Assembly: GCA_947623995.1 (NCBI GenBank)
Contig: CANQIN010000002.1
Span: forward strand, 1 to 51,336
Direction of reading: 5' to 3'
DNA length: 51,336 nucleotides
Source: an uncultured Bacilli bacterium
GTDB taxonomy: Bacteria; Bacillota_I; Bacilli_A; RF39; UBA660
The translations under genes were made by a program, and so were the position numbers. How positions within the stretch are numbered: position 1 is the first letter of the stretch; every line of letters starts with the position of its first letter. Positions 4,506-44,932 of the stretch are shown here, one piece after another. The notes beneath the pieces were generated by a model. That model made no database searches, had not been told where the DNA came from, and saw nothing but the letters and a program-made list of their open reading frames with translations.

Positions 4506-4532
4506 AAAAAAAGCAGATAATTTTTTATCTAC
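4506..4532 (-). terminator. Intrinsic terminator of the 1534-aa surface protein gene
   Basis: Minus strand GTAGATAA-AAAA-TTATCTGC (7/8 bp) followed by T7. The stem includes the TAG stop codon. Confidence 0.6.
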
Positions 4533-7500
4533 TTATTTAATTTTTTTAAAGAATTTTTAATTCCAAAGACTAATACAATTAAACTTATAACAGCCATCAT
4601 AACATAAGTCATAATATTATCAACAGTTTGAGGATTTGAAACATTATTATCTACTTCTTCATTTTCAACAACTACATCACTTAATATTACTTCTAAATTA
4701 ATATCTTCATTTAATTTAGTATCTAATGTTATTTCTTCTTCATTTTTAATATTTTTAAAGCCTTTAAATTCTTTAGTTTCATCATGTTCCATTAATTTTT
4801 CTAATCTTTGTTTATCTTCATCATTTAAATCACTTAAAGATTGTCCTTCTTCTAATTTAAATTCTTCATCACCAATTGTTACAATAATATAATGTTTAAT
4901 ACTTAAATTTTTATTTTCATTAAGAACAGTATCTAAAAGAATTGTATTACCATCTTCATCAACAAATCTTACAAATCTTTCTTCTTTCATAATTTTTTCA
5001 ATTAATGAAAGTTCTTCACTACTTAAATCACTTAATTTAGAATTTTCATCTAAAACAAATTCATGTTCATTTAATTTAACAATAATTTTATAATTAGCTT
5101 TAACCACTATATCATCATTAACAATCATATCATAATCTAAATCTTCAACAACTTTATTATCTACTACAAATTCTTTAAATTGTTTATTGGTTGCTTCTTT
5201 TAATTTATTTAGAGCATTAACTATATCTTTATCATCACTTAATTTTTTACCTTCTTCTAATTTAAAACTTTCATCTCCAACAGTAACACTATTTTTATAT
5301 AATGCTTTAATTGTTAATGGTTCATTAATATTAGTATTTACTTCAACAGTATTACCATCTAAATCAACAAATCTTGAGAATTCTTTTCTATTTTTCTTTA
5401 AAGCTTCTAAAGCATTCTTAATACTTTCATTACTTTCTAAAGATTTACCCTCAATTAAATCATACACTTTATCATTTATTGTTACTTCTAAAGTAAAGAT
5501 ACTTTTTAAATCTACATTTTCATTTAAAACCGTAGTTTCTAAAACAGTATTACCATCTAAATCTTCAAATTTTAAGAATTTACGATCCTCTTTAATTTTA
5601 AAATTAGATAAATTAGCAAGATCACTTAAACTTTGTCCCTCATCAAGTAATTGTTCTATACCATCAATGCTAATTCTTATTGAATAATTAGCTTTAATGT
5701 TCATATCATCATTTACAACAGTTTCAAAATCAATTTCATTATTAATTACACCATCTACAACATATTCTTTAAATACTTTATTTGAAACATTTTTTAATTC
5801 ATTTAAAGCATCAACAATATCTTTTTCATCATTTAATTTCTTACCTTCTTCGATTTGATATTCTTCATCTTCTACCATAACAGTTTTAAAGTATAAAGCT
5901 TTAATGGTTATATTATCTGTTATAGGAGTAGCAGTTGTTATTGTATTACCATCTAAATCAACAAATCTTGAAAAATCACCATTATACATTAAATCATCTA
6001 AAGCTTGATATAATTCTAAATTTTGGGTAGCATCATTGCCTTCTGCTAAATCAAATTTATCACCAGTATTTTCAATTGTTACAGTAACTCCAAAGATAGC
6101 TTTAAGATTTATATGTTCTTTTAAAGGACTATCTTCACTAACAACATTACCATCTTCATCTTCAAATCTCAAAAATTTACGACCATCTTTAGTTTTAAAA
6201 TTAGATAAATCTTCAATATCACTTAAAAATTGTCCTTCATCTAAAGTTTTATTTTCACCATTAATAGTAACATTAATAGTATATTTAGGAGTTAATACAG
6301 CATTTTCACTAAACTCAGTATCGATATAATACTTATTACCACTAGCTTCAAAATAACTAAAATCTTTATTACCAGGATTTATAATACTATTTAATCTTAT
6401 TTTATCTTCATCAGTATCTTCTCTTAATAATATTTCATTTAATCTGTGATTTAAATCATCAAAGAAGAATACTTCTTCACCAATTTGAATACTCATTCCA
6501 TATTTAGGTGAAAGAGTCATATTTTCATGTAATTCCATATCAACTGGAATACCAATTCCATTCTCATCAATTAAATCAGCAAAATGTCTAGTTCCATCAT
6601 TTTTATATTCATCAATAATAGCCATAATATCTGCACTAGAACTTAAACTATTTCCTTCATCTAAAGTAAATTCTCCTTTATCAGTAATAGTAATGGTAAT
6701 TGTATAAGTAGCTACAATACTAATATCTTCACTAGCAACATAATCATCTAATGAATCATATTCAACACTATTTATTACATATTTTTTAAAATTCTTTTTA
6801 ACAACATCTTTTAAAGCATCTAAAGCACTTTTAAGTTCAGTATCTTCACTTAACATTTTTCCTTCTTCAATTTTATAAATATTCTCACCAATTTCAACAT
6901 TAATATTATAAAGGGCACTTATAGTTAAATTTTTAGTTATAACTTCATTAGTATTTACAGTATTTTTATCAACATCAACAAATCTAGAAAAATCTTTTTC
7001 ACTATCTTTTAAAGTTTCTAAAGCATTCATTATTTCTTCAGAATCTTCTAATTTTTTGCCCTCTTCTAAATCATAAATTTTACTATCAATTGTAATTTCA
7101 TAAGCAAATATAGCAGTTAATTGAATATTTTCATGTAAAGGATCTCTTTCATTTATAGTTTCTCCATTTGCATCTTCAAATCTCATAAATTTAAGACCAG
7201 CTTTAGTTTTATATGTTGATAATGTATCAATATTACTTAAAGATTGTCCTTCATCTAAAGTAATATCTTCAACATCATTAATTTTAACATTAATCGTAAA
7301 TTTAGGAGTTAATACAGCATTTTCATCAAAAACAGTTTCCATATCAACTGTATCTCCATTAGCATCTTCAAAATGCTTAAATGTTTTATTATCAGCTTTT
7401 TTATAATTTTCTAATTTGACTTTATCTTCATTAGTTAAATCACCTAATTTATGACCTTGTTCTTCAAAGAAGAAAACATCATCACCTATTTCGACACTTA

Positions 7501-9133
7501 TACCATATTTAGGTTTAAGAGTCATATTTTGATGTAATTCTTCAGTTAATGGAACACCAACTCCACCTTCATCAACTAAACCAGCATAATGTTTTGTTTT
7601 ATCATTATCGTATCCTTCAACAATTTCTAAAATTCGAGAATTAGAATTTAAAGTTTTTCCTTCATCAAAAGTAAATGTTTCTTCACCAATCTTAATTTCA
7701 ACTTGATATTTAGCAGTTATAGTTACATCTTTATTAAAGATATAATCATCATCAATTTCTTCATCATCTTGGTCTTTAAAACCTACAAATTTTTTAGTAT
7801 CAACACTTTCTAAAGCACTTATTTTATCTTTTACAGCTTCAGTTGCTTTAAAATCTTTAAATTTAGTATTTTCTTCTACTTCAAAATTTCCTTCTACGCC
7901 ATCTATTGTAACATTATAAAGTTTTACATAATTAGAATAAATATCCATATTCTTAGTTAATTCAGTTTCAACATTAAATTCTTTCTTTTCATTAGTATCA
8001 TCATCAATAAATTGATATCCTTTTAATCTATATCCTTCTTTTTCACTTGGTAATTCTTTTTGATTTATTTTAGCATTTTTATCATATGCTTTAACTGTTA
8101 AATTACCTTCATTATCATAAATTCCTACAACAACATAATCAGCATCTACATTATATTTATAAGGAACTGTTATTAATGATTCTTTATTATTTTTAGATAA
8201 AATAATATCTACGCCATTTTCAATATAAATAACATTACTATTATCAGCTGTATTACTTTTGCCAAAATTAAAGATTGCACTACCAGGAGCATTATTTTCA
8301 TCAACAATTTTAGAATTTCCTGTAATATTTAATTTAATATTTGAACAAGGGGTCTCGCCATCTAAAGAGAATATATATTCAGCATTAGGACTTTTCGAAT
8401 CATTACCTGTAACTATTGTATTATTAAGATTAATAGTTAAACCTTTTTCATTTTCAATAGATATTGCTTCTTCATTTTCATGAAGAGAAGAACGCGCACT
8501 AATGTTAGAATCATTAACATTGATAGTGTTATTTTCACCATTTAGAATATCAAAAGCTTTTTGTCCACTTATGTAACTATTATTATAAATATTAATTTCT
8601 ACATCAGAAGCAGCAAGTCTAATACCATCATATAATATTGAAAACATCGAATTATTAATGTCAATTTTAGAACCATTAGCACCATCAATATTTAAAACAG
8701 TTTGATAAACACCTTTATTTAAATTATCGCCGCGACCAATTGTCAGAAATGTAACTTTTTCTAAAGTAAGATTTACTTTTTTATTAACTTTAACATAATT
8801 CCAATTAAGATTCTTAGTTATTGGAACAGCTCTAATATTTTTAATTACAACATTATTTGGAGTATCATCTTCATCATCAATAATAATTTCACTATTAATT
8901 GTAGACCCTTCACCTTCAATAGTAAGATCTTTATTTATGATAATTTGAGTTCCTTCATTACCATAAGTTCCACCAGTTAATCTTAAAGTATCACCAACAT
9001 CAGCATTTTCGATTGCAGTTTTTAATGTTGTTGCCCCAGCATTAACTTTGGTAGTTTTAGCAAAAACACTAGGCATACCACACATCATACCTACACTAAC
9101 AACACTAATAAATTTAACAAGATTTTTTTTCAT
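4529..9133 (-). CDS. Giant repeat-rich surface protein with a candidate sortase-B type sorting signal
   Basis: Signal peptide MKKNLVKFISVVSVGMMCGMPSVFA. The N-terminal ~400 aa are N/G/I-rich and beta-helix-like. About 17 tandem modules of 62-72 aa follow. The C-terminus is NPQTVD, a hydrophobic helix, then KKLNK. Confidence 0.85.
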   Translation of the reverse strand: MKKNLVKFISVVSVGMMCGMPSVFAKTTKVNAGATTLKTAIENADVGDTLRLTGGTYGNEGTQIIINKDLTIEGEGSTINSEIIIDDEDDTPNNVVIKNIRAVPITKNLNWNYVKVNKKVNLTLEKVTFLTIGRGDNLNKGVYQTVLNIDGANGSKIDINNSMFSILYDGIRLAASDVEINIYNNSYISGQKAFDILNGENNTINVNDSNISARSSLHENEEAISIENEKGLTINLNNTIVTGNDSKSPNAEYIFSLDGETPCSNIKLNITGNSKIVDENNAPGSAIFNFGKSNTADNSNVIYIENGVDIILSKNNKESLITVPYKYNVDADYVVVGIYDNEGNLTVKAYDKNAKINQKELPSEKEGYRLKGYQFIDDDTNEKKEFNVETELTKNMDIYSNYVKLYNVTIDGVEGNFEVEENTKFKDFKATEAVKDKISALESVDTKKFVGFKDQDDEEIDDDYIFNKDVTITAKYQVEIKIGEETFTFDEGKTLNSNSRILEIVEGYDNDKTKHYAGLVDEGGVGVPLTEELHQNMTLKPKYGISVEIGDDVFFFEEQGHKLGDLTNEDKVKLENYKKADNKTFKHFEDANGDTVDMETVFDENAVLTPKFTINVKINDVEDITLDEGQSLSNIDTLSTYKTKAGLKFMRFEDANGETINERDPLHENIQLTAIFAYEITIDSKIYDLEEGKKLEDSEEIMNALETLKDSEKDFSRFVDVDKNTVNTNEVITKNLTISALYNINVEIGENIYKIEEGKMLSEDTELKSALDALKDVVKKNFKKYVINSVEYDSLDDYVASEDISIVATYTITITITDKGEFTLDEGNSLSSSADIMAIIDEYKNDGTRHFADLIDENGIGIPVDMELHENMTLSPKYGMSIQIGEEVFFFDDLNHRLNEILLREDTDEDKIRLNSIINPGNKDFSYFEASGNKYYIDTEFSENAVLTPKYTINVTINGENKTLDEGQFLSDIEDLSNFKTKDGRKFLRFEDEDGNVVSEDSPLKEHINLKAIFGVTVTIENTGDKFDLAEGNDATQNLELYQALDDLMYNGDFSRFVDLDGNTITTATPITDNITIKALYFKTVMVEDEEYQIEEGKKLNDEKDIVDALNELKNVSNKVFKEYVVDGVINNEIDFETVVNDDMNIKANYSIRISIDGIEQLLDEGQSLSDLANLSNFKIKEDRKFLKFEDLDGNTVLETTVLNENVDLKSIFTLEVTINDKVYDLIEGKSLESNESIKNALEALKKNRKEFSRFVDLDGNTVEVNTNINEPLTIKALYKNSVTVGDESFKLEEGKKLSDDKDIVNALNKLKEATNKQFKEFVVDNKVVEDLDYDMIVNDDIVVKANYKIIVKLNEHEFVLDENSKLSDLSSEELSLIEKIMKEERFVRFVDEDGNTILLDTVLNENKNLSIKHYIIVTIGDEEFKLEEGQSLSDLNDEDKQRLEKLMEHDETKEFKGFKNIKNEEEITLDTKLNEDINLEVILSDVVVENEEVDNNVSNPQTVDNIMTYVMMAVISLIVLVFGIKNSLKKLNK
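4680..7930 (-). repeat. In-frame tandem array of ~17 modules of 62-72 codons inside the giant protein, with a 5-module higher-order repeat
   Basis: Recurrent pattern (V/I)x(I/V)x...(L/F)xEGxxL.....F(S/K)(R/K)F(V/E)DxDGNT(V/I)....(I/L)xxNxx(L/I)xAxY, which is InlB-B-repeat/Flg_new-like. Modules 2-6 (EIKIGEETFTFDEGKTL...) are re-used as modules 7-11 (TITITDKGEFTLDEGNSL...). Confidence 0.8.
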
Positions 9134-9261: not shown

Positions 9262-10629
9262 TTAATTTTGAATTAATATAAACGGATTATCAATACTTCC
9301 ATATTCTAGTTCTGGATTAGGATTCGAACTTATTTTTACAGATGATTTTAAATAAACAACTGGTCTAATTTCATAAGCATTAAAAGCATTATACTGTGAA
9401 AAAAGCCCATCTCTTGCAAAACCCATAACTAAACCACCAGAATTTGCAGCTACATTTGGAGTAATACTCCATTCATATTTATTCAATAATATCCATATAT
9501 TATCATTACATCCATTTTTATCATATAAATACATTTCACTATTCAAACAATTATTTCTAATATTTCCACCACTTGCATAACCATAATCTGATGGATACAT
9601 TAAGCCAATTTTTCCAACCCACTCTGTAGTTCTATTAGTTGTATCATTACACAAATTACTATTTCCAGATTTAACACAAAAATCTTTCCCATTATTTTTA
9701 CTTCTTTCATAATCATACAAATAATATGGAAAAGTTATACTAGAAGTCCACTCTAAAGGTATTGTACCAGTATTCCATTTAATATTTGCTATCATACCTC
9801 TTACACTATTATCAATACCAACATTATCCCAAACAGGACATTCTTTAACATTATTATTAATGCCACTATAACATATTCCCCCACGATTTTCTTTATATAA
9901 ATAATCATTATTCAACACTTTTTGAATATCAGATTCACTCCATTCATTAACACCTTTACCATTATTTATATCAGGTGCACTACTATCCCAACTATAATTA
10001 CCCAAACTATCATTTTTAACAATTTTTAAATAACTTCCCATATTTTCAACTTTACTATCATCTTCACTTACTTCAATAATATTATTCATAATACCTAAAA
10101 CTCTCCATAATTCATTATTAAATTTAATATAATTATTAGGACCTACACCTATATATCTTAAATTATTATCTTTAGTACCTAATTTTTCTCCTAACACTTC
10201 TTTACCATCATAAGCTAAATTTACCTTATCAGTTTCACTTAATTTAGATATATAACAAAGTATACTATCACTACCATATTTATCACATAATTCTATTGAT
10301 TCTTTTTTTCTGAAATATAAACTACATTTTGTTTTACTTTTACTTAAATTCTTTACTAATGGTGCCCATTCTTCTTCATGCCAAATGATAGTTGCTCCAT
10401 TGTCACATTCTCCCCTACTAAATATTAAATCTTCAGAATTATCTTTCAAGGGCATTGCATTTAATTTCTCTTTTCCATTATAAAAAGCAAAATATACATC
10501 ATTATTATTAAAATTAAAATTTGTCTTAAAAAGTAAAAAAGAAACTCCTAACAATATAATAATACTTGCACCTATTACTATTAATTTTCTACTATTTATA
10601 TTTTTACTTAAAAAATTTTTCAACTTCAT
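9262..10629 (-). CDS. Paralog family member, class-I N-module with type-c C-module
   Basis: N-terminal basic stretch plus TM helix. The N-module is YFAFYNGKEKLNAMP..GECDNGATIIWHEEEWAPLVKNLSKSKTKCSLYF. C-module motifs are NNLRYIG, NNELWRVLGIMNN, GLMYPSDYGYA, RPVVYLKS and a DNPFILIQN tail. Confidence 0.85.
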   Translation of the reverse strand: MKLKNFLSKNINSRKLIVIGASIIILLGVSFLLFKTNFNFNNNDVYFAFYNGKEKLNAMPLKDNSEDLIFSRGECDNGATIIWHEEEWAPLVKNLSKSKTKCSLYFRKKESIELCDKYGSDSILCYISKLSETDKVNLAYDGKEVLGEKLGTKDNNLRYIGVGPNNYIKFNNELWRVLGIMNNIIEVSEDDSKVENMGSYLKIVKNDSLGNYSWDSSAPDINNGKGVNEWSESDIQKVLNNDYLYKENRGGICYSGINNNVKECPVWDNVGIDNSVRGMIANIKWNTGTIPLEWTSSITFPYYLYDYERSKNNGKDFCVKSGNSNLCNDTTNRTTEWVGKIGLMYPSDYGYASGGNIRNNCLNSEMYLYDKNGCNDNIWILLNKYEWSITPNVAANSGGLVMGFARDGLFSQYNAFNAYEIRPVVYLKSSVKISSNPNPELEYGSIDNPFILIQN

Positions 10630-10652
10630 AAAATCACCTATTCTATGAAGTA

Positions 10653-10685
10653 ATTATAACTCTTAAACCCCCCCCCCTGTGTCAA
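10653..10685 (-). promoter_or_regulatory. Switch promoter P1: TTGACA-CA-G10-TTTAAGAGT-TATAAT (21-nt spacer)
   Basis: -35 at 10685-10680; plus-strand C10 at 10668-10677; -10 at 10658-10653. A conserved leader AGAATAGGTGATTTT precedes the ATG at 10629. Confidence 0.7.
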
Positions 10686-10693
10686 CTATTTTC

Positions 10694-10722
10694 TTGCATT
10701 TTTTTATTATTTTTGCTATGAT
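10694..10722 (+). promoter_or_regulatory. Divergent plus-strand promoter (candidate sRNA promoter)
   Basis: TTGCAT (10694-10699), 17 nt, TGc-TATGAT (10717-10722, extended -10). It lies 8 bp from the -35 of P1. Confidence 0.6.
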
Positions 10723-10728
10723 GTATAT

Positions 10729-10850
10729 AGATGAAGGAAACTTCATACAATAAAAAAGAGATATATCTTGAATCGTTCAGATGTAATCCCAAAGTTTTGG
10801 TTATGCATCCGAAATCAACATATGTTGAAATCAGATGCTTTTGTTTTTTA
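10729..10850 (+). ncRNA. Candidate ~120-nt antisense sRNA convergent with the 33-aa peptide ORF
   Basis: It sits between the promoter at 10694-10722 and an intrinsic terminator, GCATCCGAAATCAACATATGTTGAAATCAGATGC (10805-10838) plus TTTTGTTTTTT. A 5' hairpin ATGAAG-GAAA-CTTCAT occupies 10731-10746. The only ORF from its 5' end runs through the terminator, so it is probably non-coding. Confidence 0.4.
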
Positions 10851-10949
10851 TCTTGCGATTAGTAACTTGATTACTATAATCAACAAGATAATTATAATTA
10901 ACAAAAAGATTATTATGCTATTATATAAAGCAAATTCTCTTTTAGACAT
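10848..10949 (-). CDS. 33-aa hydrophobic peptide (type I toxin-like candidate)
   Basis: SD GGCGGTGAT lies upstream of the ATG at 10949. The peptide is MSKREFALYNSIIIFLLIIIILLIIVIKLLIAR. Its stop codon is overlapped by the T-tract of the convergent terminator. Confidence 0.4.
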   Translation of the reverse strand: MSKREFALYNSIIIFLLIIIILLIIVIKLLIAR

Positions 10950-11027
10950 GTAATCACCGCCTTGCATTTTTAATAGTTAAAAATAAAAGGGGAAAACATC
11001 TGATCAACTCTCAATGTATCCAATATA

Positions 11028-11056
11028 ATTGTAACAAACTTTATTTTATAAAACAA
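11028..11056 (-). promoter_or_regulatory. Promoter of the 33-aa peptide transcript
   Basis: TTGTTT (11056-11051), 17 nt, TGt-TACAAT (11033-11028). The homologous element is at 13039-13067. Confidence 0.5.
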
Positions 11057-11085
11057 TATTTATGACATTTTGCCACACTTATAAA

Positions 11086-11172
11086 TTTAATTTTTTAAAT
11101 AGAAATATCTGATAATAAATGTTGTTTCATTACCTTTAGAATCTACCATAATAGTTCCTTTACTTTTTAGGT
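11086..11172 (-). pseudogene. Orphan copy of the 3' end of the histidine kinase gene (duplication scar)
   Basis: Translates as KSKGTIMVDSKGNETTFIIRYFYLKN*, compared with the true HK C-terminus SNGTIMVDSKDNETTFIIRYFY* at 13104-13190. No upstream HK sequence is present. Confidence 0.65.
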
Positions 11173-11248
11173 TTATTAGATAAATTAAAAATCTAGTATG
11201 TTTTTTTATTTACACACCAGATCCAGATTATACACTATCAACTTAATA

Positions 11249-12619
11249 CTACCGTGCAATGAACGGTGTTCCTTTTTCACCATTTCCATCTATAATTTTT
11301 GTAGAAGATTTTAGATATACAACAGGCAAAATATCACCATAATCACCTTCTCCAGCTGAGCAGCTACCGATACCAAAATCCATACTCACACAAAACACAG
11401 TATTACCATAATCTGCTGCTGGAGTAATTGTAAATGCATCATAGCCTAGCATTAACCAATCATTTGTGTTACAACTATCACTAACATATGAAACCATACT
11501 TTTTCCTAAACATATTTCTCTTACTTCTCTTCCTACAGCATATCCGTAGTCACTAGGATAAATTAAGCCTATATATCCATCCCATGTTGTTGTTCTTTCT
11601 ACTTCATCATTACAATATCTATTATTACTCTCACATTGTTCCTTACCATTATGAGTACTTCTTTCTCCCTCATACATATATTTTGCTGATATTTTGCTAC
11701 TATAATATTTTTCACCTATCGTTCCCGTATTCCATCTTACTTTAGCTATCTTTTTCTTTGCTTCTTCACTTATTCCACTACTTGTAAAATCACATGGCTT
11801 ATAACTACTGTTATTTTTATAACAATATCCATTTTCCCTATTCCAATACAAACTTCTTCCTATTTCTGGGATTCCACTATATATATCTTGAGGATTTAAT
11901 AATTTCATTATATCTGCTTGACTCCATTCATTTACTCCCTGACCATAATTTATTTCTGATTCACTAATATCCCAACTAAAATAACCTATACTTCCTGTTC
12001 TTATTATTTTTAATAAGCTTTCTTGTTGTCCGCCATTATCTAAATTAGTTATATTATTCATGACTCCTATTATTCGCCATAATATTGGATTACCATCACC
12101 ATCACTATCTCCTATATCTATATAATTATTTACATCTGCATCTGCTCCTACATATCTTAGATTTGCATCATTTGTATCATCAACCCATAAATTTGTTGTA
12201 TCTGTTTTAGCTAAATCAATAATATAATCAGCAGCATTTGGCTCATATTCTTTAAAATATAAGCTACATTTGGTTTTACTTTTACTTAAGTTCTTTACTA
12301 TTGGTCCCCATGTTTCACTATCCCATATTATACTGGCTCCATTATCACATTCACCATGGTCAAATACTAAATTTTCTTCATTACCTTTCTGAGGCATTTC
12401 ATCTAATTCTTCATCACCTTTATAAAACGCAAAATAAATATCACTGTTACCAAAATAATCTACTTTTCCCTTCATCATTGGAAACTCTGCACTTTCTGTA
12501 AAAGATGCGAATGTTTTGTATAGAATTAATGATACACTTATTAAGACTATTACACTTATAGTTATTAGTATTGTTCTTCTTCTTTTTTCATTTTTATCAA
12601 CATACTTTTCTAGCTTCAT
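11249..12619 (-). CDS. Paralog family member, class-I N-module with type-a C-module
   Basis: N-terminus MKLEKYVDKNEKRRRTILITISVIVLISVSLILYKTFASFTESAEFPMMKGKVDYF. N-module ..GECDNGASIIWDSETWGPIVKNLSKSKTKCSLYF. C-module motifs NNYIDIGDSDGDGNPILWRIIGVMNN, NGKEQCE, YCNDEVERTTTWDGYIGLIYPSDYGYA and PVVYLKS. Confidence 0.85.
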   Translation of the reverse strand: MKLEKYVDKNEKRRRTILITISVIVLISVSLILYKTFASFTESAEFPMMKGKVDYFGNSDIYFAFYKGDEELDEMPQKGNEENLVFDHGECDNGASIIWDSETWGPIVKNLSKSKTKCSLYFKEYEPNAADYIIDLAKTDTTNLWVDDTNDANLRYVGADADVNNYIDIGDSDGDGNPILWRIIGVMNNITNLDNGGQQESLLKIIRTGSIGYFSWDISESEINYGQGVNEWSQADIMKLLNPQDIYSGIPEIGRSLYWNRENGYCYKNNSSYKPCDFTSSGISEEAKKKIAKVRWNTGTIGEKYYSSKISAKYMYEGERSTHNGKEQCESNNRYCNDEVERTTTWDGYIGLIYPSDYGYAVGREVREICLGKSMVSYVSDSCNTNDWLMLGYDAFTITPAADYGNTVFCVSMDFGIGSCSAGEGDYGDILPVVYLKSSTKIIDGNGEKGTPFIAR

Positions 12620-12642
12620 TTTATCACTCTATTCTTAGAGTA

Positions 12643-12674
12643 ATTATAACCCTTAACCCCCCCCCCTATGTCAA
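12643..12674 (-). promoter_or_regulatory. Switch promoter P2: TTGACA-TA-G10-TTAAGGGT-TATAAT (20-nt spacer)
   Basis: -35 at 12674-12669; plus-strand C10 at 12657-12666; -10 at 12648-12643. Leader AGAATAGAGTGATAAA precedes the ATG at 12619. Confidence 0.7.
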
Positions 12675-12682
12675 CTATTTTC

Positions 12683-12711
12683 TTGCATTTTTTTATTATT
12701 TTTGCTATGAT
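12683..12711 (+). promoter_or_regulatory. Divergent plus-strand promoter (second copy)
   Basis: TTGCAT (12683-12688), 17 nt, TGc-TATGAT (12706-12711). It lies 8 bp from the -35 of P2. Confidence 0.6.
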
Positions 12712-12717
12712 GTATAC

Positions 12718-12856
12718 AGATGAAGGAAACTTCATATAATAAAAAAGAGATATATCTAATTATTCGTGTAATTGGATACTCTCCAAAAAAGTTTTTGTTT
12801 TTTTTGAAAAAGCCCTTTTAACACAAATGAGTGAAAAGGTGCTTTTTCTTTTTATT
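12718..12856 (+). ncRNA. Candidate ~140-nt antisense sRNA, second copy
   Basis: The first ~45 nt match the 10729 copy (the ATGAAG-GAAA-CTTCAT hairpin), then the sequences diverge. The terminator AGCCCTTTTAACAC..GTGAAAAGGTGCT (12811-12843) plus TTTTTCTTTTT ends 5 nt before the convergent peptide stop codon. Confidence 0.4.
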
Positions 12857-12860
12857 CAGT

Positions 12861-12962
12861 TTATTTAAAAATTAATAAAAACATTAGCATAAATACTAAT
12901 AGAAATATTAATGTGAATAAAAATTTGATTATATGATAAAAGATGTGTTCTCTTTTATTCAT
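12861..12962 (-). CDS. 33-aa hydrophobic peptide (type I toxin-like candidate), second copy
   Basis: Strong SD AAGGAGG lies 6 nt before the ATG at 12962. The peptide is MNKREHIFYHIIKFLFTLIFLLVFMLMFLLIFK. Confidence 0.45.
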   Translation of the reverse strand: MNKREHIFYHIIKFLFTLIFLLVFMLMFLLIFK

Positions 12963-13038
12963 AAACATCCTCCTTTCCATAATAATTTAATTATATATGG
13001 TGGAGAGCACCTAACACTTAATTAGATATATCATTATA

Positions 13039-13067
13039 ATTATAGCAAACTTTATTTTATAAAACAA
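13039..13067 (-). promoter_or_regulatory. Promoter of the second 33-aa peptide transcript
   Basis: TTGTTT (13067-13062), 17 nt, TGc-TATAAT (13044-13039). Confidence 0.5.
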
Positions 13068-13103
13068 TATTTATGCATTTTACCACATTTATAAATTTAT
13101 TTT

Positions 13104-14306
13104 TTAATAAAAATATCTGATAATAAACGTTGTTTCATTATCTTTAGAATCTACCATAATAGTTCCATTGCTTTTTAATATAATAGCTTTTGCTAAAGAA
13201 AGCCCTATTCCTATACTTTCTTTTAAAGAAGAATCATAATGATAAAATCTTTCAAATAAATGTTTTTTATCTTCACTACTTAAAACTTTTCCATAATTAG
13301 TTATCTTAACTTCACTATAAAGATTATTTTCTTCTAAATTAATTAATACTTCACTTTTCTTTTTAGAATGTTCAATAGCATTTTTTAAAATATTAGTAAT
13401 TGCTTCTACATTCCAATCTTTATCACAATTAATAGTTGTTTTATTTTTTCCTTTTACAATAATTTTAATATCTTTTAAATCACATAAAGAAGAAACATTT
13501 AAAATTGCTTTATTAATAATGGTAATTAAATTATGAGGTTCACTTTTAAATTCAATCATATTAACTTCTAATTTTGATAATTTTAATAAATTAGTTATTA
13601 AAAATTTCATATTATTTATTTCTCTTTTAATACTTCTTAAAGCTTCTTCTTTTTTAATATCAAGATTTTCTTCATCAAGTATATTATCAACAGTAATTAA
13701 TATGGCTGTTAAAGGAGTTTTTAATTGATGAGTTATATTTTCTAATGATTCTTTTAATTCTAATTTATCTTTTTTAGAATTAATAGCTGTTTCTTTTAAC
13801 ATAACGGTTGTCTTATAAATTTCATCTCTTAATTTAGATAATTCATCTTCACTCATACTTTCTAATTTTAAAGAATAATTCTGATTATTAAGTTCTTTTA
13901 AATAATTAGTTATTTCATTTAATTCTTTATTTCTTTTTCTAAAATATAATCTAAATAAATATATAATAATTAATAAACTTAAAAAGATAAAAGCAAAATT
14001 TAAATAATTAAAATAATTTTTTAAAGAATTATTTTTTAAAATTACTGATTCTTCATTAATATCAATACTATACTTTTTTAAAAATTCTTCATTAAAATTA
14101 TTAGAATTTAAGATGTTAATAAGTTCATTATCTTCAATATGATATTTTTCTTTTACATTATTTATAATACTAACAATTGCTAAATTATAATTTTTAGTTA
14201 AGCTTTTATTTTCTAATGATATTAAAACAACTAAAGTAACACTTAGAGTAAGACTAACAATTAAACTTAAAAGATAATATTTTTTTAATTTAAGATTATT
14301 CTTCAT
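13104..14306 (-). CDS. Sensor histidine kinase (two TM helices, HisKA plus HATPase_c)
   Basis: H-box ITHQLKTPLTAI, N-box NILKNAIEHS and G-box-like GIGLSLAKAI. It overlaps the response regulator gene by 11 nt. Confidence 0.85.
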   Translation of the reverse strand: MKNNLKLKKYYLLSLIVSLTLSVTLVVLISLENKSLTKNYNLAIVSIINNVKEKYHIEDNELINILNSNNFNEEFLKKYSIDINEESVILKNNSLKNYFNYLNFAFIFLSLLIIIYLFRLYFRKRNKELNEITNYLKELNNQNYSLKLESMSEDELSKLRDEIYKTTVMLKETAINSKKDKLELKESLENITHQLKTPLTAILITVDNILDEENLDIKKEEALRSIKREINNMKFLITNLLKLSKLEVNMIEFKSEPHNLITIINKAILNVSSLCDLKDIKIIVKGKNKTTINCDKDWNVEAITNILKNAIEHSKKKSEVLINLEENNLYSEVKITNYGKVLSSEDKKHLFERFYHYDSSLKESIGIGLSLAKAIILKSNGTIMVDSKDNETTFIIRYFY

Positions 14307-19903: not shown

Positions 19904-21622
19904 TTAAAAAGCCAAAACAAGTCGAAAACTATCCCATTTTGCTAAACTGCCATATGCTTCATAAGAACGGAATATACCAGAACCAATGCCATCAGTGAAA
20001 TGGCCACCACGTCTAACCCATGGTCCAGCCGAATAGACAATCCAAGCCTCATCGTCATACCAACTGCCTACATATCTTGACTGTGTTAAATACTTCATAC
20101 TTTGGAACGGGCCCATTTCTTTTGTTGCATCTCCTAAAAAGCTTCGATTATATGATGTATTGCTTGTACTATAAGCGTATTTATCATAATATCTTTCATC
20201 GGTTGGTAAGGCAATTCCTTCTGTTACTTCTGAAATATTGTGATTTATTTCTACTCCACTATCATTACATTCTGGACATGTTAATTTTCCTATAAATCCT
20301 GAATTATATGCATTATGCCGTCCTGATGATAATTTTCCAGTATGACCATCTCCTGTTGAATTGTCATCCATTCCAGCCATCATAGTTTCCCAAGATCCTC
20401 CACTCATGTCATATATTCCACTGTAATTTCCAGTTGTACTTGCTACCACACTTGCTTTATTAAAATAATTGGTGTTATACTCACCATCAGCTCCAGGTGA
20501 TGATACACCTCCATATTCATTGCAAGCATCAGGTGTATTACTACATAACTCATTTGTTCCTGTATATCCTGTAGTTGGTTCACGTATTGCAGCATAACCT
20601 GTTAAATAATTGGAATTATTATTGATTCTTACACTTTCATGACTTCCATACACACTATGTTGTAAATAGGCTACGGCTCCCCATTCACTATTTTTCATCA
20701 TATGACTTTTTAAAGACTCTTCATAATGTAATCCCACTATGTATGCTTTTGCTACTTGAATACTTCTCCATGAATATACATTTGGTTTAATTATGACTTT
20801 ATTTGCTGCTTCTATAGAAGCTGCTTCATCACTAGGATTTATCTCTGCAACTTGTGTTCTTTCTGCTCCATCATATCCAGTTTCAAATTTTCCTACCCAT
20901 ATTCCATTGGTATTAAATGATGTGAAGGCTGGATGGGTTAACCATTCACCTTGTTTACTTCCATTTTGTACTTCTTCATCTTTTGTTTCAAATATCACAT
21001 TAATTATTTGTTCTTTATTTGTTTTCGTTGTTAATCCATTATAATTTCCTTCATCAAATATTTGATATCGATATCTGGGGATCCATACAAAATAACTTTC
21101 AATATCTCTTTCTTCTATTGGTTCATTTTCTCCTGGGTCTTCTACACCACTTCTTAATATGACTGCATTTGCCCACTTTTGAGCTCTATAATCATACCAC
21201 TTTTCTTTTTCACTTGCTCTTGTTACTAGTCCATTTTCTTCATTTATTACTATTGGTATTAATTTACTACTTAATTCTGGATCTGCTCCATTTAATTCTC
21301 TATCTATATATTTATTATTAAAATATAAAGTACACTTAGTTTTATTTTTTCTTAAATTCTTTATTAATGGAGCCCATTCTTCACTATTCCATTCAATACT
21401 TGCTCCATTATCACATTCTCCATCTATATAAACTAATCCTTCACTATTTTCTTTACTTGGCATTTCACTTATTTTTTCTTTTCCTTTATAAAAGGCTATA
21501 TCTATATTTTCATTACTATTTTCATTTATTAATAATTTTTCATAGTTTGTAAATGTTAATATATTTAATCCACTTATTAATATCACAATAATTATTAACA
21601 TTATATTTAATTTTTTCTTCAT
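19904..21622 (-). CDS. Paralog family member, class-I N-module fused to an unrelated FGE-sulfatase/SUMF1-like C-domain (type d)
   Basis: N-module IAFYKGKEKISEMP..GECDNGASIEWNSEEWAPLIKNLRKNKTKCTLYF. The C-terminal part has HPAF..GIWVGKFE, GIYDMSGGSWE, RRGGHF and a FRLVLAF end, and lacks the NLRYIG/PSDYGYA motifs. Confidence 0.8.
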   Translation of the reverse strand: MKKKLNIMLIIIVILISGLNILTFTNYEKLLINENSNENIDIAFYKGKEKISEMPSKENSEGLVYIDGECDNGASIEWNSEEWAPLIKNLRKNKTKCTLYFNNKYIDRELNGADPELSSKLIPIVINEENGLVTRASEKEKWYDYRAQKWANAVILRSGVEDPGENEPIEERDIESYFVWIPRYRYQIFDEGNYNGLTTKTNKEQIINVIFETKDEEVQNGSKQGEWLTHPAFTSFNTNGIWVGKFETGYDGAERTQVAEINPSDEAASIEAANKVIIKPNVYSWRSIQVAKAYIVGLHYEESLKSHMMKNSEWGAVAYLQHSVYGSHESVRINNNSNYLTGYAAIREPTTGYTGTNELCSNTPDACNEYGGVSSPGADGEYNTNYFNKASVVASTTGNYSGIYDMSGGSWETMMAGMDDNSTGDGHTGKLSSGRHNAYNSGFIGKLTCPECNDSGVEINHNISEVTEGIALPTDERYYDKYAYSTSNTSYNRSFLGDATKEMGPFQSMKYLTQSRYVGSWYDDEAWIVYSAGPWVRRGGHFTDGIGSGIFRSYEAYGSLAKWDSFRLVLAF

Positions 21623-21649: not shown

Positions 21650-21681
21650 ATTATAACCCATAACCCCCCCCCCTGTGTCAA
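21650..21681 (-). promoter_or_regulatory. Switch promoter P3: TTGACA-CA-G10-TTATGGGT-TATAAT (20-nt spacer)
   Basis: -35 at 21681-21676; plus-strand C10 at 21664-21673; -10 at 21655-21650. The ATG is at 21622. Confidence 0.7.
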
Positions 21682-21742
21682 TATTTAATTATTATTTTAA
21701 ACCACTTTTAACTATAATTTTTTTAAGAAAATTATTATTCAT

Positions 21743-21785: not shown

Positions 21786-23363
21786 TTATTCTATCATAAA
21801 TGGATTATCGATACTTCCATATTTCAAATCATTATTCGGATTTTCTAATATTTTAATATTTGATTTTAAATAGGCTACAGGTTTAATATTTCCAAAAGTA
21901 TCAACGCCTCCACTTGTAGCATATCCCTCAGCTGAAACAAAAAATGCAGTATGAGAATATTCTGTTAATGGAGCTGGATTAATAGTCCAAACATTAGTAT
22001 TAGAGCTAAGCCAATCATTTAAATTACAATTTTCTGTATTATAGGTATTTATACTTTTTATTAAACAATTTGTTCTTACATTTCCTCCTACCGCATAGCC
22101 ATAATCCGATGGATGTATTAAACCTATATATCCATCCCATGTTGTTTTTCTTTCTACTTCATCATTGCAATATATTCCACCTGTATTTTCACATTGTTCT
22201 TTACCATTATGATTACTTCGTTCACTTTCATACATGTATTGAGCTGTTATTTTATTTGAATAATCTATTTCACCAACTGTTCCAGTATACCATCTTACTT
22301 TTGCTATCTTACTCTTTACTTCTTCACTTAGCCCACTATTTGTAAATTCACATGGTATATTTAATTCGCTATATGCATTATAACAATATCCTTTTCCTCT
22401 TGTCCAATATAAACTTGCTCCGATTTCTGGTGTTCCACTATATACATCTTGAGGATTTAATAATTTCATTACATCAGCTTGACTCCATTCATTTACTCCC
22501 CAACCATTATTTATATTTGGTGCACTACTATCCCAGCTATAATCTCCTATATTATCTGCTCTTATTATTTTTACTAAACTTTCTTGCTTTTCAATATCAT
22601 CTAAACTTGTGATATTATTCATAACACCAATTACTCGCCATAATATTGGATTACCATCACCATCTCTATCTCCTATATCTATATAGTTATTTGGTTCTGC
22701 TCCAATATATCTTAAATTATTATCTTTGGTATTATCATATGATAAATTTGTTTCTTCGGTTTTGGCTATTTCTTCTATATAATCACTTGCTACTTGTTCA
22801 CCTATTTTTCCTTCAACCACTATTTTTGATTTTGCTATTTCATTTTCTATTCCACTTTCTTTTGTTACTTCTTCTTTTATCCATAATCTTAACTCATAGT
22901 TTACACTTTCTAATTTTCTTAATCTTCCTTCTGTTAATTGACGACTTTCTTTTGCTTCACTTATTTTTGGTATTTCATTTTCAGGATATTTACTTAATAT
23001 TTTAGGTTCTGTTTCTGTTTCTTCTTTATTTAATAATACTTTTATATTTTCACTATTTAATGTTGTTTCATTTAACATTTCTAAATTTATACTATAATCT
23101 ACATAATTTTCACATTCATTACGGATTGTAAATTTATATGGCTCTAGAATTTTTCCTTCTACATCTGTTTTTGGAAATGTATTTGTTAAACTTATGTTAT
23201 CTTCTTTATTTGTTAATTCTATATCTAAACAACTTGTACTTAAGATATTTTCATTTGTTTGTTCTTTTGTTATTACCCATAAAGCATAACTTACTCCTAT
23301 AGTTATTATTATTAACATTATTACCACTAATCCTATATATAATTTCTTTTTATTTTTGGCCAT
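21786..23363 (-). CDS. Paralog family member, class-II (TasA/camelysin-like) N-module with type-a C-module
   Basis: AAGGAGAA SD lies before the ATG at 23363 (MAKNKKKLYIGLVV..). The sequence continues SYALWVITKEQTNENILSTSCLDIELTN..FTIRNECENYVDYS. The C-module closely parallels 11249-12619 (KIAKVRWYTGT, NGKEQCE, YCNDEVERKTTWDGYIGLIHPSDYGYA). Confidence 0.85.
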   Translation of the reverse strand: MAKNKKKLYIGLVVIMLIIITIGVSYALWVITKEQTNENILSTSCLDIELTNKEDNISLTNTFPKTDVEGKILEPYKFTIRNECENYVDYSINLEMLNETTLNSENIKVLLNKEETETEPKILSKYPENEIPKISEAKESRQLTEGRLRKLESVNYELRLWIKEEVTKESGIENEIAKSKIVVEGKIGEQVASDYIEEIAKTEETNLSYDNTKDNNLRYIGAEPNNYIDIGDRDGDGNPILWRVIGVMNNITSLDDIEKQESLVKIIRADNIGDYSWDSSAPNINNGWGVNEWSQADVMKLLNPQDVYSGTPEIGASLYWTRGKGYCYNAYSELNIPCEFTNSGLSEEVKSKIAKVRWYTGTVGEIDYSNKITAQYMYESERSNHNGKEQCENTGGIYCNDEVERKTTWDGYIGLIHPSDYGYAVGGNVRTNCLIKSINTYNTENCNLNDWLSSNTNVWTINPAPLTEYSHTAFFVSAEGYATSGGVDTFGNIKPVAYLKSNIKILENPNNDLKYGSIDNPFMIE

Positions 23364-23403
23364 AACACATTCTCCTTGTATAACTATTATTTTTATTATC
23401 AAT

Positions 23404-25598: not shown

Positions 25599-26945
25599 TC
25601 AAAATGTTAATCGAAAAGGATTATCTATTGAACCGTAATTATCACTTTCATCTGATTCAATATAGACTTTATTATTTAAATATACAGTTGGTAAAATATT
25701 TGCTTCCTGATTTACATCACCCCAATAAATACCACTCATAGTAGAACTTATAGCAGTTTTATTAGAATTATCAAAATGAGTAGTTAAAAACCAATGACTA
25801 TCAGTATACAACCAATTAATATTTTCAATTGTATAACATGTACTATCAAAATCTAGTAATTTTTTTTCTAAGCAAGTTTCTCTATCATTTGCAACTGCAT
25901 AGCCATAATCTGATGGATAAATTAACCCAACTCCATTATGATATTTTGAATCATTTTCTCTGGTCCATACACTTGGATAGCCACTTTCTTTTACTGAAAC
26001 ACTTCTTTCTTTTTCATACATCGTTGGTGCATTATATATATCATTTGGTTCACCCAAATTCCATATAACATCTTTATCAATCATCAGCCTTGCTTCTTCA
26101 TTTAATCCTTTTGAATTTATATTATCTTGAGTAAAATCACATTCTGTTGGAATAGGATTATTTACATCTTGATAGCAATCACCAATCTCACTATTATAAT
26201 ATATGCCATTTAACATATCTTTTAAAGTTGAAGTTGTCCAATCATTATTATATGTAGATTTATAATCCCAACTATAATATCCTAAATCATCCATAAAGTG
26301 AAAATCTTCATTTTCATCAGTCCAAAATACATTTGAAATTCTTGTTAATTTTACTCTTTGTTCTATTCCACTATCAGTTTGAACGTTTACGAGTCCAATA
26401 ATTCTCCATATTTCATCATTAAATGCTATATAATTATTAGGATCTTCTCCAGCATATCGATATTCTATTTTATTCCAGCCACTATCTATTTCAGTAACAC
26501 TATGATCTACTTTATACAATCCATCACCAGTCTCTACAATAGGAATATCTCTATTTAATTGAAAACCAGTTTGTTCTTTAAAATATAAGCTACACTTTGT
26601 CTTTACTTTTTTTAATCCTTTTACTAATGGGGCCCATTCATTGTTGTTCCATTCAATACTTGCTCCATTATCACATTCACCATGGTCAAATACTAAATTA
26701 TCTGGATTATCTTTTACTGGCATCGTATCTAACTGTTCATCACCTTTATAGAATGCAAAATAAATATCGCTATTACCAAAATAATCAACTTTTCCTTTCA
26801 TCATTGGAAATTCTGCACTTTCCGTAAAACTTGCAAAGGTTTTATATAGAAGTAATGAGACACTTATTAAGACTATTACACTTATACTTATCAATATTGT
26901 TTTTCTTCTTTTCTTACTTTTATCTTCATATTTTTTTAGCTTCAT
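25599..26945 (-). CDS. Paralog family member, class-I N-module with type-b C-module
   Basis: N-terminus ..YKTFASFTESAEFPMMKGKVDYFGNSDIYFAFYKGDEQLDTMP..GECDNGASIEWNNNEWAPLVKGLKKVKTKCSLYF. C-module motifs EYRYAGEDPNNYIAFNDEIWRIIGLVNV, LKDMLNGIYYNSEIGDCY, GLIYPSDYGYA, PTVYL and DNPFRLTF. Confidence 0.85.
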   Translation of the reverse strand: MKLKKYEDKSKKRRKTILISISVIVLISVSLLLYKTFASFTESAEFPMMKGKVDYFGNSDIYFAFYKGDEQLDTMPVKDNPDNLVFDHGECDNGASIEWNNNEWAPLVKGLKKVKTKCSLYFKEQTGFQLNRDIPIVETGDGLYKVDHSVTEIDSGWNKIEYRYAGEDPNNYIAFNDEIWRIIGLVNVQTDSGIEQRVKLTRISNVFWTDENEDFHFMDDLGYYSWDYKSTYNNDWTTSTLKDMLNGIYYNSEIGDCYQDVNNPIPTECDFTQDNINSKGLNEEARLMIDKDVIWNLGEPNDIYNAPTMYEKERSVSVKESGYPSVWTRENDSKYHNGVGLIYPSDYGYAVANDRETCLEKKLLDFDSTCYTIENINWLYTDSHWFLTTHFDNSNKTAISSTMSGIYWGDVNQEANILPTVYLNNKVYIESDESDNYGSIDNPFRLTF

Positions 26946-26967: not shown

Positions 26968-26998
26968 ATTATAGCATTTACCCCCCCCCCTATGTCAA
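26968..26998 (-). promoter_or_regulatory. Switch promoter P4: TTGACA-TA-G10-TAAATGC-TATAAT (19-nt spacer)
   Basis: -35 at 26998-26993; plus-strand C10 at 26981-26990; -10 at 26973-26968. The ATG is at 26945. Confidence 0.7.
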
Positions 26999-31689: not shown

Positions 31690-33015
31690 CTATTGAACTG
31701 ATAATACAAAAGGCGAATTTATATCTCCTGTTCCATCAACAATTTTTGTAGAAGTTGTTAAATATAAAGTTGGCCAAACCATAATTTCGGAATTGACACG
31801 ATAATCACTGCTAGTTACCCAACCTTCATATTCTACATAGAATGCATGATTGGAATCATTAGAATCTAGTGATAAAGTCCATAGACAATAATAGGGACTT
31901 GGAGTTAACCAATCATTTGTATAGCAATTACCTCCATCATAATCATATAAATTTTTGACTAAACAATTATTCCTTACTTCTCCTCCTACGGCATAACCGT
32001 AATCACTTGGATAAATTAAGCCTATTCCATTATGCTTTTCTCCTACATCTGTTTCAATACTCCATTCACTTGGATATGTATTACTACTTCCTGTACTTGT
32101 TCCCCTTTCTTTTTCATAAAATTGTTTTGCTGTTATTGTCTCTGTATCCCATCCACCTATATTCCAGCTTACTTCTTTATCTATCATATTTCTTGCTGTA
32201 TCATCTAATCCTTTTGGTAAAATTGCTCCTGTATTAAAATCACACTGGCTTACTATACCACTACTGCTATTATAGCAATCTCCTATTCCACTTTCATAGT
32301 ATATTCCATTCAGCATATCTTTTAATGACGAAGTATTCCAATTATTAGTATCTGTATCCCAATAATACTGGCCAAAATCCTTTTGGCCTTTTACACCATC
32401 TTGTCTTACTATTTTTAGTCTTTGCTCTATTCCACTTTCAGTTTTTACATTTACTAAACCTATAATTCGCCAGATTTCATTATTAAAGAATACATAATTA
32501 TCTGGATCAGCTCCAGCATATCGATATTCAGTTTGATTCCATTCTTGACCAAGTTCTTCTAAATCATCATGAGTTACGACATAAAGTCCATCTCCACTTT
32601 CTACTACTGGTATTTTCATTCCGCCTAATTCTACACCTACTTGTTCTTTAAAATATAAACTACATTTAGTCTTACTTTTACTTAAATTTTTAACCATTGG
32701 TCCCCATTTTTCACTATTCCATTCGATTGTTGCTCCATTATCACATATTCCATGGTCAAATACCAAATTTTCTTCATTACCATTCTGAGGCATTTCATCT
32801 AATTGTTCATCACCTTTATAGAACGCAAAATAAATATCACTATTACCAAAATAATCTACTTTACCTTTCATCATAGGAAATTCAGCACTTTCAGTAAAAC
32901 TTGCAAAGGTTTTATATAATAGAAAAGAAACACTTATTAACACTATTACACTAATGGTTATTAGTATTGTTTTTCTTGTTTTACTATTCTTATCAACATA
33001 CTTTTCTAGCTTCAT
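31690..33015 (-). CDS. Paralog family member, class-I N-module with type-b C-module
   Basis: Same N-terminus and N-module as 25599-26945 (..GICDNGATIEWNSEKWGPMVKNLSKSKTKCSLYF). C-module motifs EYRYAGADPDNYVFFNNEIWRIIGLVNV, LKDMLNGIYYESGIGDCY and GLIYPSDYGYAVGG. Confidence 0.85.
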   Translation of the reverse strand: MKLEKYVDKNSKTRKTILITISVIVLISVSFLLYKTFASFTESAEFPMMKGKVDYFGNSDIYFAFYKGDEQLDEMPQNGNEENLVFDHGICDNGATIEWNSEKWGPMVKNLSKSKTKCSLYFKEQVGVELGGMKIPVVESGDGLYVVTHDDLEELGQEWNQTEYRYAGADPDNYVFFNNEIWRIIGLVNVKTESGIEQRLKIVRQDGVKGQKDFGQYYWDTDTNNWNTSSLKDMLNGIYYESGIGDCYNSSSGIVSQCDFNTGAILPKGLDDTARNMIDKEVSWNIGGWDTETITAKQFYEKERGTSTGSSNTYPSEWSIETDVGEKHNGIGLIYPSDYGYAVGGEVRNNCLVKNLYDYDGGNCYTNDWLTPSPYYCLWTLSLDSNDSNHAFYVEYEGWVTSSDYRVNSEIMVWPTLYLTTSTKIVDGTGDINSPFVLSVQ

Positions 33016-33038: not shown

Positions 33039-33071
33039 ATTATAAACTTTAAAACCCCCCCCCCATGTCAA
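33039..33071 (-). promoter_or_regulatory. Switch promoter P5: TTGACA-T-G10-TTTTAAAGTT-TATAAT (21-nt spacer)
   Basis: -35 at 33071-33066; plus-strand C10 at 33055-33064; -10 at 33044-33039. The ATG is at 33015. Confidence 0.7.
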
Positions 33072-34620: not shown

Positions 34621-34652
34621 ATTATAAACCTATACCCCCCCCCCTATGTCAA
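34621..34652 (-). promoter_or_regulatory. Switch promoter P6: TTGACA-TA-G10-TATAGGTT-TATAAT (20-nt spacer)
   Basis: -35 at 34652-34647; plus-strand C10 at 34635-34644; -10 at 34626-34621. The ATG is at 34597. Confidence 0.7.
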
Positions 34653-34735
34653 CATTTAAATTATTATTTTAAACCACTTTTTATGTTTATACTATAAATT
34701 TTCTTTTTTTGAAAATTATTATTCATAAAAAAATC

Positions 34736-44901: not shown

Positions 44902-44932
44902 ATTATAGCTCTTGACCTATCCTCCATGTCAA
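44902..44932 (-). promoter_or_regulatory. Switch-promoter homolog with a degenerated tract (TTGACA-TGGAGGATAGG..-TATAAT, 19-nt spacer)
   Basis: -35 at 44932-44927 and -10 at 44907-44902. The position of the G10 is occupied by GGAGGATAGG. The upstream flank matches P5. Confidence 0.5.

Follow-up and report, generated by a model that had tools for sequence, protein, structure and literature searches.

Repeat-driven phase variation is textbook knowledge for the mycoplasmas, Neisseria, Haemophilus, Helicobacter and Campylobacter and, to our knowledge, is hardly documented in uncultured Gram-positive-type gut commensals. In Neisseria meningitidis, the porA (poly-G) and opc (poly-C) genes carry the repeat in the spacer between the -35 and -10 boxes, and the number of repeat units sets the strength of the promoter. 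The divergent hifA and hifB promoters of Haemophilus influenzae are phase-variable through TA repeats in both of their overlapping spacers. Similarly, a simple repeat lies in the -35/-10 spacer of Mycoplasma mycoides Vmm and sets promoter strength by its number, and in Mycoplasma hyorhinis the promoter of each vlp gene has a poly-A tract in which indels switch transcription ON or OFF independently for each gene (PMC10502178). In the low-GC genome of Campylobacter jejuni, tracts of G8-G11 occur with a mode of G9 that is set by mutational bias, and the contingency loci include many surface-related genes, most loci being in one consensus state (PMC3401435).

The locus described here lies in a 51,336-nt stretch of DNA from an uncultured Bacilli bacterium of the rabbit gut, analysed over its whole length and referred to below as the window. 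On the minus strand, from 12674 to 12643, the P2 promoter reads TTGACA-TA-G10-TTAAGGGT-TATAAT, with the tract letters GGGGGGGGGG between TA and TTAAGGGT; the position, the G10 run, the 20-nt spacer and the downstream ORF 11249-12619 entered for P2 in the initial annotation proved exact when the minus strand was re-read. As in promoter-spacer repeat loci, a slippable repeat (about 8 units or more) is located between the -35 and the -10 and varies in length in sister cassettes, and the product is predicted to be surface-exposed, with a TM helix at residues 9-39 and a lectin-like ectodomain. The cassette is real and non-random, and it adds a new host and a new gene family to the promoter-spacer repeat switches, a class already known; no published description of this G-tract cassette system was found in the literature searched. 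Judged from its sequence and that of its relatives, P2 is probably a slipped-strand, phase-variable promoter of the sigma-A type, assembled in a weak or OFF length.

Like the vlp system of M. hyorhinis, the system considered here consists of a multigene variable surface family with a highly similar, homopolymer-bearing promoter for each gene, and its proteins combine a conserved N-terminal region for membrane targeting with an external part that diverges. Unlike in vlp, the tract is poly-G in a genome of 26% GC rather than poly-A, the products are non-homologous and have no lipobox that would make them lipoproteins, the host belongs to a spore-former-like lineage of gut Bacilli, and the assembled state is 2-4 bp over the optimum, not 1. 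Vmm and porA/opc are single genes whose common lengths straddle the optimum, whereas the cassette here is family-wide. With C. jejuni, the system shares poly-G tracts with a modal length, a low-GC genome and many surface-related genes; unlike the mostly intragenic frame switches of C. jejuni, P2 represents the promoter-spacer form, and the intragenic form is found here only in the sister species bin51 (discussed below).

According to the proposed mechanism, P2 would be read as a housekeeping (sigma-A/sigma-70 type) promoter in which the G10 run between the two consensus boxes is prone to slippage. Replication slippage would add or remove G residues, the distance and the rotation between the -35 and the -10 would change, and with them the transcription of the surface-protein gene. 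Since G10 gives 20 bp, which is 3 bp over the 17 bp of tract-free promoters, the assembled P2 is predicted to be OFF or very weak; its activity is predicted to climb via G9 and G8, to be full near G7-G8 and to have its maximum near G7, at which P2 would, by arithmetic, have 17-bp spacing. Because each paralogue has its own tract, the outcome would be combinatorial, and each cell lineage would express a different heritable and reversible subset, as in contingency loci. We infer slippage at P2 itself, its ON lengths and its TSS from the sequence, and the distance to the -10 would place the TSS near 12636.

The -10 of P2 is preceded by a G at -14 without a T at -15, which makes an incomplete extended -10, and lies about 23-24 nt from the ATG of ORF 11249-12619. 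An alternative -35 at 17 or 18 bp from this -10 was sought and rejected, as the hexamers at those positions, ACATAG and GACATA, have 0/6 and 2/6 matches, respectively; TTGACA, 20 bp away, would thus be the only -35 available to RNA polymerase. The 20-bp spacer is within the 19-20 bp overlong-spacer criterion of MerR-type promoters, but no inverted repeat was found in TA-G10-TTAAGGGT, and MerR-type activation at P2 was rejected because the spacer lacks a dyad. A sigma-B-like -10, GGGTTA, is present at P2 and P3, is not conserved in other cassettes and was likewise rejected. A leader fold-back hairpin, with its 5' arm upstream of the TSS and its 3' arm over the SD, by which read-through transcripts would be silenced, was also dropped: RNAalifold gave 0 kcal/mol and essentially no covariation.

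P2 is one of a set. At the G+C content of the window (26%), 0.08 G8 matches are expected by chance; 18 overlapping matches were observed, which collapse to six G10 runs, and no further G or C run of at least 7 is present in the window beyond these. All six runs belong to the minus strand and are flanked by TTGACA and TATAAT hexamers without a mismatch, each in a promoter directly upstream of a paralogous gene (6/6). This pattern is far beyond chance. A TGn extended -10 is seen in a subset of cassettes, namely P4 (TGC-TATAAT), L004, L028, L030, L038 and L046, and on sequence grounds these should be less dependent on -35 spacing, and leakier, than P2.

Two further cassettes in the window are without an intact tract. 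The first, a decayed seventh copy at 44902-44932, retains an upstream GTGGTTTAAAATAAT box and is followed by a broken N-terminal coding fragment (44687-44879), apparently what is left of a pseudogene, ahead of ORF 42867-44435. The second (37982-38025, minus strand), with the sequence GTGGTTTAAAATGAT..TTGACG-TTATGAGC-TATAAT, lies upstream of ORF 36372-37964; it lacks TA-G10 altogether, its boxes are just 8 nt apart, and it has a weak alternative in GTGAAT-17-TATAAT. An ISL3-family transposase gene (34824-36158, minus strand) is located directly upstream of P6.

Table 1. Positions of the promoters, predicted transcripts and genes discussed in the text (window coordinates unless a related locus is named).
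Feature	Position	Strand	Remarks
P1, G10, 21-nt spacer	10653..10685	-	divergent module 10694-10722 and palindrome 10731-10746, as at P2
P2, G10, 20-nt spacer	12643..12674	-	gene ORF 11249-12619
P2 -35 TTGACA	12669..12674	-	direct reading; TTGAC(A/C/T) in 42/42 cassette promoters
P2 spacer TA-G10-TTAAGGGT, 20 nt	12649..12668	-	direct reading
P2 G10 homopolymer (plus strand: C10), proposed slippage tract	12657..12666	-	direct reading
P2 -10 TATAAT	12643..12648	-	direct reading
P2 short leader	12617..12642	-	conserved in 29 distinct cassettes
P2 SD GAGTGAT	12629-12623	-	
P2 ATG	12619-12617	-	
P2 family gene, 456 aa	11249..12619	-	N-terminal TM helix, beta domain 61-124, lectin-like alpha/beta ectodomain 129-456
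P3, G10, 20-nt spacer	21650..21681	-	gene ORF 19904-21622
P4, G10, 19-nt spacer, TGn extended -10	26968..26998	-	gene ORF 25599-26945
P5, G10, 21-nt spacer	33039..33071	-	gene ORF 31690-33015
P6, G10, 20-nt spacer	34621..34652	-	gene ORF 33263-34597
Decayed seventh cassette TTGACA-T-GGAGGATAGG-TCAAGAGC-TATAAT, 19 nt	44902..44932	-	G tract decayed to GGAGGATAGG
GTGGTTTAAAATAAT box	21691-21705, 33082-33096, 34663-34677, 38011-38025, 44943-44957	-	
Divergent promoter TTGCAT-17-TATGAT, TGn (TGC) at 12703-12705	12683..12711	+	-35 TTGCAT at 12683-12688
Perfect 16-bp palindrome ATGAAGGAAACTTCAT	12720..12735	.	start of predicted plus-strand transcript; identical in five loci
Predicted sRNA, ~130 nt	12718..12852	+	5' hairpin, middle hairpin, terminator
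Bidirectional terminator hairpin	12806..12853	.	common to peptide mRNA (-) and predicted sRNA (+)
33-aa hydrophobic peptide ORF MNKREHIFYHIIKFLFTLIFLLVFMLMFLLIFK, AGGAGG SD	12861..12962	-	from sequence
Peptide gene promoter, extended -10 TGCTATAAT (TGn)	13039..13047	-	from sequence
P1-side 33-aa hydrophobic peptide ORF	10848-10949	-	strong SD, own TGn promoter, terminator
bin51 family genes with in-CDS tract	L010 (30, 2390), L019 (40, 2315), L043 (2993)		

A genome scan returned 43 related loci, every one of them in rabbit-gut MAGs; 42 are labelled 'uncultured Bacilli bacterium' and one (L038) 'uncultured Clostridia bacterium', and the presence of spoIVA on the contig of a relative suggests a spore-former. 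Pattern scans gave 0 matches for the cassette in viral contigs and 0 matches in JGI metagenomes, both for the P1/P2 upstream block and for the general cassette pattern. The window and the related loci together contain 42 promoters of the form TTGACN-TA-G(n)-N8-TATAAT-leader-ATG, with tracts of G9 (n=8), G10 (n=31), G11 (n=1), G12 (n=1) and an interrupted G6AGG (n=1). Their total spacers measure 19 nt (n=11), 20 nt (n=27) or 21 nt (n=4), and none of the 42 has a spacer of 17-18 nt. In cassettes whose non-G spacer portion measures 9 or 11 nt, the tract is still G10, and the run length looks, from these sequences, more constrained than the total spacing. In the 350,691 bases examined, 74 of the 80 G/C runs of at least 8 stand immediately after a TTGAC/TTGAT hexamer, and 5 others lie inside family coding sequences. 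At L016, which comes from another species and has the same upstream module as P2, the tract is G9, versus G10 at P2. Four heads of the form TTGAC(T)/TTGATC-TA-G(n), at L025:4968, L035:4105, L057:695 and L058:1547, with tracts of G6, G8, G9 and G11, continue into unrelated sequence without N8-TATAAT and may be cassettes that were disrupted or rearranged at the tract.

The spacing of these promoters can be set against that of tract-free promoters in the same genomes. Among 20 such promoters with perfect TTGAC-N-TATAAT, 12 have a 17-bp spacer, and all examples of 19-21 bp are decayed G-tract cassettes of family genes. Family genes without a tract have either TTGACA-17-TATACT (L051) or an 18-bp spacer (L048-L050), and in bin51 (L010, L019, L043) the family promoter is TTGACA-17-TATAAT. 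The 17-bp controls imply that the G10 promoters are 2-4 bp past the native optimum. On the other hand, an intact ORF follows in 4/6 of the interrupted-tract cassettes of 19-21 bp; four of these six 'locked' cassettes are at 19 bp, and three of the four precede an intact ORF. Intact ORFs in these positions would be odd if such lengths were fully silent; they would agree with a graded model, in which a promoter at 19 bp has some use already, or with a helper factor that makes the long geometry functional.

In the graded model, G9 (19 bp) would give useful low expression via the perfect hexamers, the step between G9 and G10 would be the working switch, and G7-G8 would be seldom visited. Such control is rather unlikely in our judgement, although it has several observations on its side: G9 and G10 make up 39 of the 42 tracts, most locked cassettes have the 19-bp spacing, and the polymorphisms between samples (described below) are of the G10/G9 type. 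The numbers are small, however, 19 bp is still 2 bases over the 17 bp of the tract-free promoters, and the window's own locked 19-bp cassette (44902-44932) precedes a broken gene.

No variation in length is seen at P2 at the consensus level, as G10 is present in 3/3 assemblies (the window, L044 and L045); the other two assemblies are of the same strain, are 99.7-99.9% identical over 6.4 kb and have G10 at both P1 and P2. The consensus is also invariant at P1, P4, P5 and P6, all being G10, as P2 is, in two to three assemblies each; for P3, a look-up of the protein returned no record. Given that homopolymers are error-prone and that the P2 consensus does not vary, the G10 run could be regarded as an assembly or sequencing artefact, or P2 as the relic promoter of a dead gene. 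This is scarcely credible, since the same G10 is recovered in independent Illumina/SPAdes assemblies from several samples, ORF 11249-12619 is intact, with 456 aa and thousands of homologues, and the cassette is conserved between species.

Variation is found at a related locus, L057-L060, which was recovered from four samples with 99.5-100% identity. Here, one promoter has G10 versus G9, another has G10/G10/G10/G9, and the lengths in a third tract are G9 and G11, in contigs of low coverage (4-6x); all of the indel events (4/4) are in G tracts, and none occurs elsewhere over 3-4 kb. At another locus, G10 is present in all four samples, and in total the length is polymorphic in 3 of the 12 loci compared. 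The allele at L060:1692 has G11 by a T-to-G substitution after the run, with the total spacer unchanged; a point mutation can thus lengthen a tract as well. In C. jejuni, poly-G tracts of G8 tend to gain and those of G11 to lose, and this mutational bias sets the mode (PMC3401435). By analogy, a G10 mode that holds regardless of the non-G length would fit a mutational equilibrium of that kind, and it fits less well with selection on spacing.

A 15-nt box, GTGGTTTAAAATAAT, with the consensus GTGGT(T/A)TAAA(A/G)T(A/G)AT, is conserved 10 nt upstream of the cassette -35. The window has five copies, all of them at family promoters (0.3 expected), and about two thirds of the cassettes in other MAGs also have the box; P1, P2 and P4 are without it. 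From its sequence and position, the box could bind an activator or act like an UP element. Its conservation in most cassettes is one reason to consider that the G10 run may be a fixed functional part of a regulated promoter rather than a switch operated by mutation, with 19-21 bp as the working state; a factor would then bind the GTGGTTTAAAATAAT box or the G run, or the promoter would be sensitive to twist or supercoiling and be aided by divergent transcription. The invariance of G10 at five loci of the window, its status as the mode at every total spacer length, the absence of 17-18 bp promoters among the 42 and the intact ORFs after interrupted tracts of equal length also point in this direction. 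A fixed element is nevertheless improbable: the box is missing at three of the promoters, P2 among them, the P2 spacer has no dyad symmetry, unlike MerR-type operators, the tract length differs among paralogues, orthologues and samples, with the sole inter-assembly indels located in tracts, and bin51 has a like tract as an in-gene frame switch.

It would be a long shot to see in the 19-21 bp G10 geometry a novel class of promoter that is built to work at this spacing and is read through DNA twist or by a factor of its own. Such a class may operate via the GTGGTTTAAAATAAT box or, at P1 and P2, via supercoiling from the back-to-back sRNA promoter, and the G run may then be a tunable torsional element for which slippage is only fine-tuning. 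In a milder form, the tract may act as a multi-step 'counter', three slips from ON, such that dozens of adhesin-like genes are near-always silent and are activated singly.

The reading of the tract as a slipped-strand switch gains from the comparison with bin51, in which the G tract is located inside the coding sequence, near codon 55. The five in-CDS tracts of this species are G11, G11, G10, G9 and G8, and 1/5 is in frame. Taken with the promoter tracts elsewhere, they place the family under poly-G control by two routes, and because they are mostly out of frame, having most copies OFF at the consensus appears normal for the family. As a separate observation, the promoter spacer of bin51 consists of a perfect palindrome of 18 bp, TATAACCATATGGTTATA, a possible operator. 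P2 had been called a switch promoter in the initial annotation. As a description of the cassette this holds up well, given more than 40 conserved promoters, lengths of G9-G12 among paralogues and orthologues, the native 17 bp, inter-assembly indels confined to G tracts, and the in-CDS tracts of the sister species; at P2 itself it does not find the same footing, the consensus being G10 in all three assemblies.

In the AlphaFold model of the P2 protein (mean pLDDT 87), the TM helix is followed by a disordered linker. Foldseek against the PDB gave one significant match, the Thomasclavelia ramosa IgA peptidase 9qa6 (E = 1.2e-8, 331 columns), with a TM-score of merely 0.37 over the query. The N-terminal domain of this peptidase is an enlarged, non-catalytic C-type-lectin-like domain (PMC12237041). 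The P2 protein shares only this N-terminal non-catalytic fold with the peptidase and is without its catalytic, wrapping and sortase modules, and HExxH (M64 igalysin HExxHxxxGxxD) is absent from the 456 residues. Since HExxH is lacking and the fold match is only to a non-catalytic domain, the P2 protein is best described, on the basis of the model, as a membrane-anchored, possibly secreted, lectin-like surface protein and not as a protease. Its N-terminus, MKLEKYVDKNEKRRRTILITISVIVLISVSLILYKTFASF, has no lipobox Cys.

The products of the six G10 promoters in the window are paralogues, 30-53% identical to the P2 product, with a common N-terminal hydrophobic helix, a small conserved domain (AFYKG..GECDNGA..KTKCSLYF) and a variable C-terminal part. 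More than 5,900 related proteins are present in the database, none of them named, and searches of the family protein against Pfam, NCBIfam, PHROGs and a PDB sequence profile yielded no usable match. A second subfamily is encoded on the minus strand at 42867-44435, 46740-48404, 48574-50217, 50386-51216+, 21786-23402 and 36372-37964. Its lectin-like C-terminal domain has 31-61% identity to P2 residues 114-454, its N-terminal domain of ~190 aa is different, and the N-terminal halves are near-identical in three tandem copies; the genes of this subfamily are without a G tract. In addition, a 1534-aa ORF (4529-9133, minus strand), for which no Pfam, NCBIfam or PHROG match was found, follows the P1-driven gene at a distance of 128 bp, and the two may be co-transcribed.

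The back-to-back arrangement described earlier for P2 is also present as described, with 8 bp between the two -35 boxes and a promoter on the plus strand. The -35 of this divergent promoter, TTGCAT, is weak (3/6 consensus matches), and a simple promoter scan did not list the promoter; its hexamers, TGn and 17-bp spacing are conserved in P1, P2, L011, L012 and L016, i.e., five loci in four MAG species, with TACTAT as the -10 in L011. Like hifA/hifB, P2 is a candidate phase-variable promoter within a back-to-back divergent pair; unlike in hifA/hifB, only P2 of the pair carries a tract, the spacer of its partner being fixed at 17 bp. The predicted sRNA that starts downstream of the divergent promoter folds with -37.2 kcal/mol (z = -5.2). 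A hydrophobic peptide of 25-33 aa is encoded at all five loci, and in L016 and L011 the position of the peptide promoter is occupied by TTGAC-17-TATAAT.

The type I toxin-antitoxin loci of Firmicutes include par/fst of pAD1, txpA/RatA and bsrG/SR4. Like these, the present locus has a gene for a hydrophobic peptide of 25-33 aa with its own promoter and leader, a convergent predicted sRNA promoter and a shared bidirectional terminator. Rfam gave no match for the whole window at the gathering threshold, nor for 10600-13150 at E up to 1, and the small hydrophobic peptides had no match in Pfam; this sets the locus apart from the named type I families, and both the sRNA and the toxicity are putative. 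It is possible, though a shade short of an even chance, that the divergent promoter drives an sRNA of ~130 nt that converges on the 33-aa peptide gene in a type I toxin-antitoxin-like layout. The 33-aa peptides are, by their sequences, candidates for type I toxins.

The P1 and P2 units, each comprising a peptide gene, a divergent promoter, a G10 promoter and a family gene, are colinear, and this colinearity extends across about 1.85 kb. Their identity is a mosaic: 12674-12733 reaches 98%, the surroundings of the G10 promoter and of the peptide promoter about 82%, and the remainder 33-73%; the two proteins are 47% identical. The P2-type peptide is found also in L016, and the P1-type in L011 and L012. 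Of the local tandem duplication proposed in the initial annotation, the relationship stands, as the units are colinear paralogues, but the data do not fit a recent event: the mosaic of 33-98%, with proteins at 47%, and the presence of both unit types in other species imply that the duplication is old. The near-identical regulatory block would then have been kept by selection or gene conversion.

In general, one cassette, consisting of a -35, a G tract, a -10, a short leader and an N-terminal anchor, is reused across a very large unannotated family, with at least six potentially switchable copies in 51 kb, and the family offers a natural comparison of promoter-spacer and in-frame tract designs on homologous genes. 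If the tracts switch, the expressed state would be hidden by metagenome consensus sequences, and the organism would have combinatorial surface variation, with consequences for gut colonisation, IgA coating and phage adsorption.
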